Positions 25,862-42,997 of a DNA stretch of 64,000 bases are shown piece after piece. The notes under the pieces are model-generated. The model was given only the letters and a program-made list of their open reading frames with translations, searched no databases and was not told the origin of the DNA. Position 1 is the first letter of the stretch, and each line of letters starts with the position of its first letter. Origin of the DNA: a virus. Taxonomy: Duplodnaviria > Caudoviricetes. Made by a program: the position numbers and the translations under genes. Location of the stretch: IMG/VR virus record IMGVR_UViG_3300028624_000003, positions 156,983-220,982 of that record; one strand, given 5' to 3'.

Positions 25862-25893
25862 GAGTAGCGGGTGGGTAATCCCACCCGCTACTC
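25862..25893 (+). terminator. 14-bp stem-loop
   Basis: GAGTAGCGGGTGGG-TAAT-CCCACCCGCTACTC. Confidence 0.65.
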
Positions 25894-25959
25894 GCATCCT
25901 GTGCACGTTAATTTTTTGTCTAATAGCTTATCGTATAGACTTTTAAGGAGGACTCCCTC

Positions 25960-28900
25960 ATGTTCGAAGATATCATCAGTGCAGGAGAAGAGCGGTTGAT
26001 GTTCAATGCGTTCTTCCGTAAGCATTTCGCATTTCGTCAGGGTGATTTGGCTCCTGTATTCAAGCCACTTCCCTCGGATATCGTCCTTCCTGCTGGAAGC
26101 CTGATTCACGTCGTGGACAACATGTACAGCAGAGACAACAGCCTTCCGTTGTCGGATGCACCCAATATGAGAATTCCTCTCATAGCCAACGATACCTACA
26201 GAAAGTTTGTACATCACCGTATTGCAATCGACACTGATGGACCCGTCAAGATAGACGAGAAGTATGTGTTCCGCACACAGAATCTCGCACAAAACCTGAA
26301 GCAATTCCGAAGCTGGACGACCAAGCAAAAGAATTTGCGTGTAGTAGAGAATCTGAAAGATCTTCCTGCTACAAAAACTACGTTAGCGATCATAAACCAC
26401 AACCCACTGTTTCGTACAGTAGTTCGTGGTATGCTTCCTAACTATCGTCAGTTCAAGATCATCTTTTCTTCGATTCTGAACACTGCGGCAAAATGCCCTA
26501 GCGACCGTACCCAGTACATCGTCATTCCTTTATCGAAGCAGATGTACAACCGCAGTGACTTCTTCCTTGCAAAGAAACAAGAAACTCCATCCGCAATCAA
26601 GTCGAAGAATAGCTACCACTATTTCTTCATGATGCACTGGTTGAACTTCCTCGACGTCGCAACAGACCTTTCACTCTTTGAGAGTTATCCTGAAGATCGT
26701 TGGGGAAACACGGTGATTGTGTTCACCTACGGTGTCGATGAGATGAAGTATGCCATGTTCTGGACTCTTCATGACGCAATTGCACTCAATCAACAGAACC
26801 GTGGATACAACAAGATCGTCAATCAGCTCAATGCGTTCGTACTGACAAACATGGGCGTTGAGCTTGAGAACACTGACAACGAACTTCAAGTCGAAGGCAA
26901 ACTTGCAGAAGTTGTCGACAAGGGTCAAGTAGTTAGCGATACTCCAGATACTGAAGTTGTCGCTATGGGACCGAAAGACGATCAAGAAACAGAACTGAGT
27001 GACGATCCTCAAGATATCGAAGAAGATGTTGCACTCAGTGAAAAGATCAAAGCTATGTTCAGTGATCTCACGAATGTGAAAGCACTGGACCCAGAAATAG
27101 CTCCGATCAAAATGGGCGGACTTGCGTACGCTGAGGGAGAAGAAGATACTCCTATTCGGTATACGAAACCTACGAAAACCGAGGGTAAGAGCAACCCTAC
27201 AGAGACGGAGAATAATCCCGATTTCGCACAAGAAAAACCCGAACAAATGAGGGTTATATCTGACGAAATCGAAGAAGACGCGGAAACTCAGGAAGTAGGA
27301 GTACTATCGAAGATAACTCCTGTAACAACTCCTGAACAGATATCGGAAATGGGTAAAGCCCATCTTCAAGAGATCGACGAAAAGGTGGAAGAGCTTCTTC
27401 GTAAAGATCCTAATCTCACACCGAAAGCAAAAGAACGTCTGCTCAGGATCTCTGCGAATTCCAAACAGGTTAAACTCAATGGGAAAACTATTGAGGAACA
27501 CCTCACAGAATCAGTGGATCCTACTCTCACGAGTCACACGCTCGATCACTTGGCTGATCAATTGGCAGATCCTTCGATGGCTAATGCCAGTATTCAGTCA
27601 TTCGACCAGCTTTACATGGAGAAATTCTACCATCGTGATTTGGCTGCAGTTGCTGTGGGACTGAACAGTCACGGAATGTTTCTCACTGGAATCGAAGAGG
27701 TAGTACAGTCCGACGAACTGAACCGTCTTGTACACTACAAAATGAAATTTGTAGACAAGAATGGCAAATCGCACAAGTTGCAGTTCAGTCTTCCTCAAGT
27801 AGACAAGAACGGCAATTGTCTGATCAATGGTGTGGAGTGCAAGCTTCGTAAACAGATGACCAACCTCCCGATTTGCAAAGTATCTCCTACCAGAGTATCT
27901 CTTGCCTCGTCATTCAACAAGACGGTAGTAGAAAGGAATCTGGCAAAAGCTCACAGCTTCCTGCCTTACTTCCAGAAGCTCATGTCCATGGCTGCCAAAA
28001 ATAAAGAAGGTAGCGAAACAGGAGCGGCTCTGACCGAGGTAGATTACGGGAGTGTGAAGATCAATGATCGAATCTCCACGGAGTATGCTGACATTGCTAC
28101 GCTCTACAAGAGCTTTACACTAGTCTGCAAGAATTCTGATACGTATCGGTTCGTACTGGATGTGAATGCGTACAGAACCGAAGTATACCAATTCTCAGGG
28201 CAGAGTAATGTATACTCCGAGAAGAATATCACGACACTCGCTGAGAAATACGGTACCCCTTTCGGGCTGTGCAAGATCGACGGTGAAAAATACCTACTGT
28301 TCATCCGTGCTAACAACATCGTGACGATGATTAGCTGCAAAGCGGTGAACGTGAAAGGATTGACCAGCAAAGATATCGTAGCGCACAGAACGACGATTAT
28401 CGACATGTTCTCCGCAATCATTGGGAAGCCATCGACAAGACTGACTGAATGGACAGATATCAAGATTCTCGACAAGAAATTCCCAGTAGGGTTCTTGCTC
28501 TGTTTCCAGTTTGGTCTGAAGCATATACTCGACTATCTTGGCGTGCGGTACAGACGCACCGGAGTCCGCAGTCGACAAAGTCTGCGCGCAAGTGACATTG
28601 TCATTCCTTTCAAGGACGAAGCACTGATCATTCCGAGATACCCTCTCCGGAACTCACTGATCGTCACCGGATTGACGATGTTCAATACGAAGAAGTACAT
28701 GTTCGAAGACTTCAATGAGAAAAACGTGTACTACGAACTCTTGACCGATAAGGGCTTCAAGACCAACTATCTCAAGGGCATCGAAGATACTTTCAAGTAC
28801 TTCGTAGACCACAAAACAAAAGAGACCTTGATTCAGATGGGTGAACCCGCCACATTCAAGGATCTCCTCATTCGTGCTACCGATATGCTTTGTACTCCGA

Positions 28901-29391
28901 GACATCTCGAGTCGTCCGCTATCGGCAACCACAGACTCAGATCTTACGAACGCTTCAACATGATTGTCTACAACGAAGTCATGCGCGAACACGCTAACTT
29001 CTCCCGTCGGCAAGGTGCTGGAGCTACTTTCAGTATCAACCCGAATGCAGTACTGCAGAGACTCTTACAGGACCAAGCAATGATCGGTATTGAAAATATC
29101 AATCCGATCCAGGAAAGCAAGATCAATTGCAGTTTCACCTATACTGGTGCAGGCGGTCGTACGTCGCAAGCATTCGTGACAGAAGACCGCAGATATCCCA
29201 GTGACGGCATGGGTGTCATATCGGAAGCCACTCCTGACTCAGGTAGTGTCGCTATCAACGCAGTAGCTCCTCCAGATCCTACGATAGCGAACATCTACGG
29301 ATTGGTCGATCCTAAGCCAGTAGGAGAACTGGAGCCTGCTCAGATACTGAGTACTCCTGCACTCTTACTTCCTGGCGTGACACAGGACGAT
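25960..29391 (+). CDS. Virion RNA polymerase beta subunit (phiKZ gp178-like), exon 1
   Basis: RKQMTNLPICKVSPTRVSLASSFNK, RLRSYERF, TYTGAGGR, GVISEATPDSG; ends PGVTQDD. Confidence 0.9.
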
Positions 29392-29423
29392 CGAAGATAG
29401 ACTTGAACTAGAGTAAAAATAAC

Positions 29424-29440
29424 CCTCCATTGTATGGAGG
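29424..29440 (+). promoter_or_regulatory. RBS-sequestering hairpin with an embedded late promoter
   Basis: CCTCCAT-TGT-ATGGAGG masks SD GGAGG; ATTGTATG at 29429-29436. Confidence 0.7.
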
Positions 29441-29448
29441 ACAAACTC

Positions 29449-30453
29449 ATGTTCATAAACAAAGATTTCCCAGGATTTTTCAATATTCCAGGTTTCTCAC
29501 AATACGTCATTTCCCCTGACGGTAAGGTAATCAATACCACAACAGGAGAAATGTTAAAAGGTAGCACTAATCCCGCAGGGTATCATCACTATCGGTTAAA
29601 ATCAGACTCAGGAAAGATAAAAACTATCGGTCGCCATCGGTTGATGTGTATGACATTCGTACAAAGGGATGAATGGGATTCCCTTGTCGTAAATCATATC
29701 AACGGAGTGAAAGGTGACGATCGTCTGGTTAATCTGGAATGGGCTACATACACCGAAAATGCTGAGCATGCAGGAAGAATGGGACTGACCTCAAAGTGCT
29801 GTCCAGTTGATGTGAAAAGTTTGGATACGGGAGAAATCCTCAAATTCCCAAGTGCAAAAAAGTGTGCGGAGTATTTTGGTTTGAGTAAGGACGCAGTACT
29901 GTACAGGCTAAAGCAGCCATCCAGTCGTGTGTATCCTGAAAGAATGCAGTACCGCATAAGCGCAAACGAACCCTGGCCTGACCCGGAAAACATCGAAAGT
30001 GCTGTGCTCGAAAATGGTCGAGCTAGGTCAATTCTACTTAGAGATGTGTGGACAAAAGAAATCCGTTGGTTTCCAAAACTCAGCGGATTGGCGAGATACT
30101 TAAACGTCTCTCCCGCCACCATTACTAAGTGGATCAATTTACCTAACAATCCAGTACTTCCGGGCGGCATACAGCTGAAACTAGCAGCTGATTGTACTCC
30201 TTGGGTAGAGTACGACGATCCTTACTTGGAAATGTCCAAATTTTCAGGTACTCGATACGTCGAAGTATTCGATTCGTTCACAGGAACTAACCGAATATAC
30301 TCTTCACTCAAAGAGTGTGCACAGGATCGCAATCTCGCGATGTCTGTTGCACATTACAGGGTTAAGACCAATGGGAGATCTTTGTTTTCTGACGGATGTT
30401 ACTACGGGTATTACCCGCTAAAACATCCGGGTCTATCAGGTCCTACCAAATAG
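29449..30453 (+). CDS. Intron-encoded HNH homing endonuclease (NUMOD4-like + HNH + repeated NUMOD1-like HTH)
   Basis: IPGFSQYVISPDGKV...HRL; VVNHINGVKGDDRLVNLEWATYTEN; FPSAKKCAEYFG, FPKLSGLARYLN, YSSLKECA. Confidence 0.9.
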   Translation: MFINKDFPGFFNIPGFSQYVISPDGKVINTTTGEMLKGSTNPAGYHHYRLKSDSGKIKTIGRHRLMCMTFVQRDEWDSLVVNHINGVKGDDRLVNLEWATYTENAEHAGRMGLTSKCCPVDVKSLDTGEILKFPSAKKCAEYFGLSKDAVLYRLKQPSSRVYPERMQYRISANEPWPDPENIESAVLENGRARSILLRDVWTKEIRWFPKLSGLARYLNVSPATITKWINLPNNPVLPGGIQLKLAADCTPWVEYDDPYLEMSKFSGTRYVEVFDSFTGTNRIYSSLKECAQDRNLAMSVAHYRVKTNGRSLFSDGCYYGYYPLKHPGLSGPTK

Positions 30454-30753
30454 CAATATTTGGATAGAACTCCCCTTAATTGCTGGAACACCCTTAGAGC
30501 CATTCTACCACAACGTAAGGATGAAATATACCTAAGCGTGATGGTTTGAAAAACGAATGGATTGGGCAATCAGCAGCCAAGCTCCGAATAGGAGAAGGTT
30601 CAACGACTAAGGCCTTGTCAGCCTGTACGGATCAAGTGATCCGGAAAAAGGGGACACCCTACTAGGGTGAAGATATAGTCTCGTCTTTAGTGAAAGCTAA
30701 AGCTGCAGGTAATGCTGCGGGTACTATCTAACGAATAGTATCGAAGATTAACG

Positions 30754-31905
30754 CCGAAGAGAGCTAACTTTGTATCCATTCAGCTGGCTCACCAGCTTCC
30801 GACGAAAGAAGGCGAGTGTATGCGTACTCGTACAGGATACGAGAGAGTCGTAGCTCAAAGAGCGTCTACTTATTACGCATACTCTGCATCACAAGACGGT
30901 AAGGTCATTGAAGTAGACGAAGCTCTCGGGCTTTGTAAAGTGAAGTACAAAGACGGTACAGTTCAGGTCATCGAATTCGGTGAGAAGTACGGAGAGTGTG
31001 CGGACATGGTCACCACACTCAAGTTGCAGCTTACAGTAAAAGTAGGTGATTCATTCAAGAAAGGTGACGTGCTCTCGTATAATCCCGAGTACTTCGAGTT
31101 TGACCCTATCGCAAGACAGGCAGATTGGAAACACGGAGTAATCGCTACTGTGGCGTTGATGGACTGCGGTCCTACTTTCGAAGACAGTAACTCCATCACG
31201 AAGGAACTTGGTGAAAAGCTGGAAATCCAGCCAATCGAGATCCGACAAATCGCCATAACAGCGGACACTGTAATCCATGCGCACAAGAGCGTGGGCGATG
31301 AGGTCGATGTCACCGACTACCTCATGATCTTCGAAGACTCCGAAGCGGCCGACTTGACCGGTATGTCACAAGACGCGGATGCTTTGGAGTATCTCGCTAA
31401 ACTGAACAGAAAAACACCCAAAGCAAAGTGCACTGGAACAATAGCGAAGATCGAAGCATTTTACGCTGCGCCAATAAGCGAAATGCATTCGAGTGTAGCT
31501 AAGTTCGTACGAGATGTCACCAAGAAAAACATGCAGAAACACAAGTACTCGCAGGGTACTATTTCGGGTATGGATTTCCCTGAATCTAAGCCACTTCCAG
31601 TGGGAACAAAATTCAAGGGAGTGACATTCGAGAAAGACACGGTACTTTTCCGCTTCTTCATCCAAGAAAGAATTGGTTGCGGAGTGGGCGACAAGATCGT
31701 GTTTGACTCGTCTCTGAAATCTGTCACTGGTAAGATTCACGAAGATATCAATACTGAGAGCGGTCTCAAGATAGATGCCGTATTCAGCGGCTCATCGATA
31801 TCTAACCGAATCGTGAACTCGCCCATCATCATGGGCATGGCAGAACGGATTCTGGAGACTCTGGAACAGCAGGCAATTGACATCTACTTCGACAAGTCCA
31901 AATAA
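30754..31905 (+). CDS. Virion RNA polymerase beta subunit, exon 2 (spliced product about 1527 aa)
   Basis: PKRANFVSIQ...RTGYE, TFEDS, GVGDKIVF..LKSV, IDAVF...SI.NRIV. Confidence 0.9.
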   Translation, partial: PKRANFVSIQLAHQLPTKEGECMRTRTGYERVVAQRASTYYAYSASQDGKVIEVDEALGLCKVKYKDGTVQVIEFGEKYGECADMVTTLKLQLTVKVGDSFKKGDVLSYNPEYFEFDPIARQADWKHGVIATVALMDCGPTFEDSNSITKELGEKLEIQPIEIRQIAITADTVIHAHKSVGDEVDVTDYLMIFEDSEAADLTGMSQDADALEYLAKLNRKTPKAKCTGTIAKIEAFYAAPISEMHSSVAKFVRDVTKKNMQKHKYSQGTISGMDFPESKPLPVGTKFKGVTFEKDTVLFRFFIQERIGCGVGDKIVFDSSLKSVTGKIHEDINTESGLKIDAVFSGSSISNRIVNSPIIMGMAERILETLEQQAIDIYFDKSK

Positions 31906-42988: not shown

Positions 42989-42997
42989 CATAGTATG
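42989..42997. promoter_or_regulatory. Bidirectional late promoter CATAGTATG
   Basis: ATAGTATG on + and ATACTATG on -, between divergent structural operons. Confidence 0.65.

Follow-up and report, generated by a model that had tools for sequence, protein, structure and literature searches.

A hairpin at the start of an intron-encoded homing endonuclease gene probably keeps the nuclease untranslated unless a phage promoter within the hairpin starts a shorter message. We estimate at about 0.7 the probability that the element is a translational gate whose state depends on the promoter from which the RNA was made, the anti-SD hairpin silencing the nuclease and the internal promoter releasing it. 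This element is located 32 nt into a group I intron of the virion RNAP β gene, in a 64,000-nt stretch (the window) of a 221-kb phage genome. This is a known regulatory logic in a new setting, and in that setting it is real and conserved.

The intron, its host gene and the nuclease

The features of the host gene, the intron and the nuclease are all on the plus strand. Exon 1 of the virion RNAP β gene (25960-29391; PHROG 3148, E 5e-144), the orthologue of phiKZ gp178 and PhiPA3 gp211, ends in two Asp codons. Exon 2 is at 30754-31905 (PHROG 3148, E 1e-98), and joining the two gives a 1527-aa virion RNAP β frame without a stop. The 1362-nt intron between them (29392-30753) matches Rfam RF00028 at 30402-30702 with 90.8 bits, and 33 homologues have an intron at the identical site. 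Like other introns of the gp210 family, it has a group I core, a U-G at the 5′ site with the U preceding that site, a terminal G and an insertion point after the DD of virion RNAP β. The host gene has a promoter-like ATnnTATA core at 25930-25937, with its +1 23 nt before ATG 25960; this word is enriched 9.7-fold upstream of genes. Further upstream, a long perfect hairpin (25864-25894) separates the host-gene promoter from two genes that have early-type motifs (25021, 25432). If that hairpin leaks, early synthesis of the RNAP-β precursor would also be possible.

The intron encodes a 334-aa HNH/NUMOD homing endonuclease of the gp210 family (29449-30453). It is 41% identical to PhiPA3 gp210, and its His83 aligns with the catalytic His82 of that protein. 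PhiPA3 gp210 is a nickase that acts on the phiKZ gp178 allele (PMC11620839). The 5′ strand of the P1 extension (29396-29405), which includes the in-frame stop of exon 1 (29398-29400), pairs with 30428-30437, placing the nuclease ORF in intron loop L1. The 3′ strand of the extension and the IGS (30428-30442, with G30440 opposite U29391) lie within the final nuclease codons, about 1 kb downstream of the hairpin. The stop codon (30451-30453) is held in the P2 hairpin (30446-30463), and PhiPA3 and most homologues share the layout. The earlier note had the nuclease ORF overlapping the IGS, which is correct and extends to the P1 extension and P2; its further idea, that the intron gains from keeping ribosomes off the IGS, would hold by analogy with T4. 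The IGS G is inside the ORF in 16 of 29 scorable homologues, and in 6 more the ORF stops no more than 15 nt before it.

Structure of the nuclease start region

The hairpin (29424-29440) has 7 bp and a 3-nt loop (29431-29433). Folding and comparison with homologues identify its 5′ arm (29424-29430) as an anti-SD, while its 3′ arm (29434-29440) contains the SD GGAGG (29436-29440), 8 nt before ATG 29449, and an in-frame ATG (29434) that is probably unused. An nvRNAP-type promoter core, ATnnTATG, reads ATTGTATG at 29429-29436 and was recognized by motif enrichment and in homologues; its predicted +1 is G29436, following the start at G reported in PMC4666361. The positions that the earlier note gave for the hairpin, SD, spacer, start codon and motif are all exact. 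Just before the hairpin, at 29415-29423, is a conserved A-rich element (family consensus about AARTTWAC) with its last C at -13/-14 from the +1 and with AA at -21/-20 in 86-95% of homologues.

The hairpin has a predicted stability of -9.9 kcal/mol and formed in every context folded. For 29421-29451 the z-score was -2.85, and 2 of 200 shuffles folded equally well. Start regions at least as hard to open are found at 24 of 205 genes in the genome (12%), and the hairpin alone is only mildly unusual. Opening the start region costs 11.5 kcal in the long RNA versus 4.2 in the short RNA, from which the bases before the +1 are removed. The medians for homologues are 10.7 and 4.4, and that for ordinary genes is 7.8. 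A weak second hairpin is kept in the short RNA (SD pairing 0.55), which we counted against the gate. The predicted RBS-sequestering hairpin of the earlier note is thereby borne out by folding, as it is by the homologue comparison below. Its compaction into 17 nt is true of the window copy but not of the family: the window is the compact extreme, with a 3-nt loop and the +1 on the first SD base, whereas homologues have longer loops and leaders of 13-30 nt. The 13-nt leader in the window is also at the short extreme for the genome, where most leaders are 21-47 nt.

Comparison of introns at the same site

We traced 120 protein relatives to their loci and obtained 33 non-redundant introns at the RNAP-β site, 34 with the window. 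The homologous loci were retrieved with an alignment query; a single-sequence search of viral contigs and a scan of genome contigs for such loci gave no matches. Nuclease identity to the window is 35-55% across these introns. ATnnTATR occurs 11-35 nt before the nuclease start in 22 of the 34 (shuffle mean 2.2, maximum 7) and a relaxed motif in 28 (shuffle mean 5.0, maximum 12), counts that are not independent events as the introns are related. Six introns do not carry the motif even in its relaxed form, and the geometry is unusual in three motif picks (L008, L025, L095). About one third of the homologous nuclease promoters use TATA. The usual order in the leader is A-rich element, pyrimidine anti-SD arm, motif, variable loop and SD, and the motif is mostly placed with its AT at the 3′ end of the 5′ arm. 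One homologous intron (L023:5921-8072) is about 750 nt longer than the others, the extra length following the nuclease gene.

In 25 of 28 nuclease leaders the SD pairs (p>0.5) with bases that precede the predicted +1, as against 4 of 40 for ordinary genes bearing the motif (p 3e-9). In an alignment-free test, each arm with its own SD formed a duplex of -7.5 kcal versus -5.7 when swapped, a value that none of 20000 permutations reached. Arms shuffled within their composition gave a gap of -0.2 ± 0.3 versus the real -1.8, and composition is no explanation of the fit between arm and SD. Twenty-seven of the 28 arms differ, with a mean identity of 49%. In the predicted folds, stem positions show several pair types (at -8, for example, U-A in 16, C-G in 3, A-U in 2 and U-G in 2). 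The anti-SD arms covary with their own SDs, covariation in homologous introns being a check that the earlier note had proposed for the hairpin. There is good support for the T4 I-TevI logic as a design of the family as a whole.

The A-rich element was compared with two kinds of known site. It was rejected as the phiKZ middle-promoter element (an A-rich TAC with its C near -19) because its spacing, with the C at -13/-14, is wrong by about 5 nt and the score is -4.5. An operator resembling the homing site was not found either: the best 14-nt match scored 9.6 at the own site, 9.3 at other sites and 9.4 in shuffled sequence, so that the element gives no signal as an operator mimic. At the ordinary motif promoters of this genome no such element was seen upstream. 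A wider proposal is that mobile introns of phiKZ-like phages have, at several insertion sites (RNAP β, β′ and DNA polymerase), taken up a conserved cassette made up of an A-rich element, an anti-SD arm and an ATnnTATR core. The A-rich element would bind a regulator, and the nuclease, a competition weapon of the gp210 type, would be under a regulated promoter of its own and timed independently of the host gene. We consider this proposal speculative and somewhat unlikely in full.

ATnnTATG is a promoter core

ATnnTATG is a real promoter core. It is the top-ranked gapped word upstream of genes in this genome, where a gene follows at 5-120 nt in 32 of its 46 sites (13-fold, p 2e-30), and the control words ATnnTATC and ATnnCATG show no such enrichment. 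The earlier note placed it upstream of structural genes. It does precede many of these, and it also precedes others, such as those for a DnaB-like helicase and the homologue of virion RNAP gp149. ATnnTATA is found more often before replication-type genes and ATnnTATG before structural ones, a leaky split that possibly reflects two promoter classes. Between two divergent genes in the window, ATnnTATG occurs on both strands within 9 nt (42989-42997).

Late promoters of the phiKZ nvRNAP have TATG with the +1 at the G (PMC4666361, PMC12809450), as predicted for the window. TATG is required but insufficient for initiation in phiKZ, and downstream sequence matters (PMC4666361). We mapped 142 of 149 published start coordinates (supplement of 10.1101/2023.10.13.562163) onto the phiKZ genome. 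Mapped starts account for 34 of 68 ATnnTATG sites versus 71 of 2480 TATG sites, and 24 of the 47 late starts with TATG have AT at -7/-6, against 2.7% of TATG sites overall. The core is also found at 8 of 32 phiKZ middle promoters. ATnnTATA, the variant at phiKZ gp179, coincides with mapped starts at only 5 of its 126 sites. The window octamer itself is a mapped late start in phiKZ (P102, P118). With this enrichment at mapped starts and the use of the octamer as a late start, initiation at G29436 in the window is likely. An internal nvRNAP-type promoter whose predicted +1 drops the anti-SD arm, as the earlier note proposed, is thus supported by comparison, motif and geometry.

The published text gives phiKZ late promoters a 4-bp consensus, whereas here the AT at -7/-6 belongs to the signal; it may be visible already in the published phiKZ logos. 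How a consensus of 4 bp can be specific is a stated puzzle, to which it is relevant that half of the phiKZ ATnnTATG sites are mapped starts.

Proposed mechanism

In both the long RNAP-β precursor and the excised intron the SD would be paired with the anti-SD arm, so that ribosomes would not start on the nuclease, as the structure and its conservation suggest. Motif and geometry point to a second event, in which the phage non-virion RNAP would also initiate at the ATnnTATG core in the hairpin, at G29436. This RNA would have neither the arm nor the 5′ splice site; it could not splice and would serve as the nuclease mRNA, presumably translated from ATG 29449. The gate would also let promoter strength set the nickase dose.

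[quoted passage not shown] Deleting the hairpin in T4 lowers td splicing (PMC2988022), and it is by analogy with T4 I-TevI that we infer splicing protection as a purpose. Such protection may be less important if this phage keeps transcription apart from translation by means of a nucleus. If it builds one, splicing may precede contact with ribosomes, and the main role of the gate would be to dose the nickase and to silence the excised intron. Chimallin has a GNAT-like domain. In the chimallin position of this genome, before the gp55 homologue, is a 542-aa gene (L123:211-1836; C1 112610-114238) with weak GNAT-like structural leads only. A sequence search with this gene found no match, and chimallin was not identified.

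Relation to known systems

Translational gates are known for T4 I-TevI, I-TevII, I-TevIII, segB and Aeh1 mobE (PMC2988022, PMC3073962). Like the window, the T4 gates hide an SD about 8 nt from the AUG in a hairpin on the long transcript. Their internal promoter yields an RNA too short for the hairpin, as motif and geometry predict for the window, and the ORF's 3′ end overlaps intron structure in both. The overlap is with P6a/P7 in T4 but with P1, the IGS and P2 in the window, where the ORF is in L1. I-TevI is autorepressed, but no operator resembling the homing site was found at the nuclease promoter of the window. The promoters also differ. T4 uses gp55 promoters with the motif TATAAATA, whereas the window has the core of a multisubunit nvRNAP, with the +1 inside the motif. 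The T4 solution would here be rebuilt with an unrelated polymerase.

A close relative is the PhiPA3 gp210 intron in gp211/209 (PMC11620839), which interrupts the same gene at the same site after the two Asp codons. The nuclease similarity given above is accompanied by the same leader design, with a 13-nt loop and ATnnTATA in PhiPA3 instead of the 3-nt loop of the window and its +1 on the first SD base. The main text of PMC11620839 does not mention a promoter, RBS or hairpin for gp210. We found no published description of such control in phiKZ-like phage introns, in a search that covered few subscription papers. Nucleases of the gp210 family act in competition between co-infecting jumbo phages, and the gate offers a testable answer to how they are expressed without harming the splicing of an essential RNAP gene.

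Timing and alternative explanations

The earlier note described a timing switch with a late promoter. In such a switch the host gene would be middle, the internal promoter late and the nuclease made only after the RNAP-β mRNA has been spliced. This is compatible with the gate and adds a time offset. The virion RNAP genes of phiKZ are middle genes (PMC4666361, PMC10612078). On phiKZ middle-versus-late weights the nuclease promoter is late-like (-4.5), and nuclease promoters mostly lack a middle element at the proper spacing, which fits a delay. In this genome ATnnTATA precedes the gp82, gp75 and gp165 homologues and the host gene, with ATnnTATG before many structural genes. However, the host gene has its own site, ATCGTATA, which is late-like too (-3.4), the core is shared with phiKZ middle promoters, the TATG/TATA split is leaky and TATA serves about a third of the homologous nucleases. 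Moreover, the layout and motif are absent from four checked nucleases in introns of early nvRNAP genes, for which a late delay should be most important (phiKZ gp56 and gp72, and two in this genome), and no start is called in the gp179 hairpin. The timing switch is not supported as stated. Given the late-like host-gene site, the core at middle promoters and the leaky split, we regard the gate as probable and a real delay of the nuclease relative to its host gene as possible.

The hairpin might instead be a real damper without an internal promoter, the nuclease being translated from the excised intron in a leaky or structure-dependent way and the motif being partly an anti-SD by-product. In the phiKZ ONT-cappable-seq table no start is called inside the gp179 hairpin (187756), the sole unit called over gp179 being the whole intron from end to end (187788-186346), and a TnSeq preprint treats gp179 as having no internal start (10.1101/2025.11.23.690004). 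The AT at -7/-6 is moreover paired in most homologues. Yet TATR often lies in the unpaired loop and is kept, and accidental retention is unlikely as the motif is rare genome-wide, in keeping with the 2.7% of phiKZ TATG sites. A start inside the gp179 hairpin could go uncalled if capped intron RNA 32 nt upstream is abundant. We consider a damper without an internal promoter unlikely. That the hairpin arose by chance, and that the nuclease is translated from ATG 29434 or by coupling to exon 1, is very improbable. ATG 29434 is in frame, and equally strong hairpins occur at 12% of the starts in the genome, but this ATG has no SD and sits in the stem, and for these reasons we rejected it as the nuclease start. 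In most homologues the ATG within TATG is absent from the listed open in-frame starts, and conservation and covariation across the family also argue against chance. The start at ATG 29449 preferred by the earlier note is retained.

Other insertion sites

The same leader layout as in the nuclease of the window is found at other sites, namely in phiKZ gp179 and in several nucleases of gp180 and gp82 introns. The counts, 4 of 11 for gp180 and 5 of 13 for gp82, are rough, since the starts were picked automatically and some are wrong (L004, for example).

In phiKZ (AF399011), the published starts P096, P029 and P035 coincide with what appear to be the 5′ ends of the gp180, gp55 and gp71 introns (187788, 49168 and 64454), and TU140 spans the gp180 intron exactly (187788-186346). 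These are probably GTP-capped excised introns, and would then be evidence of the splicing that PMC10914365 states was not found.

Outside the window, the nvRNAP β′ (gp55-like) gene of this phage (L122:1639-3541; C1 115638-117540) has two tandem insertions around its DFDGD motif. A 9-nt mini-exon separates them, and joining restores DFDGD. Both contain an HNH-like gene and a predicted SD-hiding hairpin without ATnnTATR. The second has no Rfam match, and the core of the first is identical to the window intron at 231 of 280 positions.
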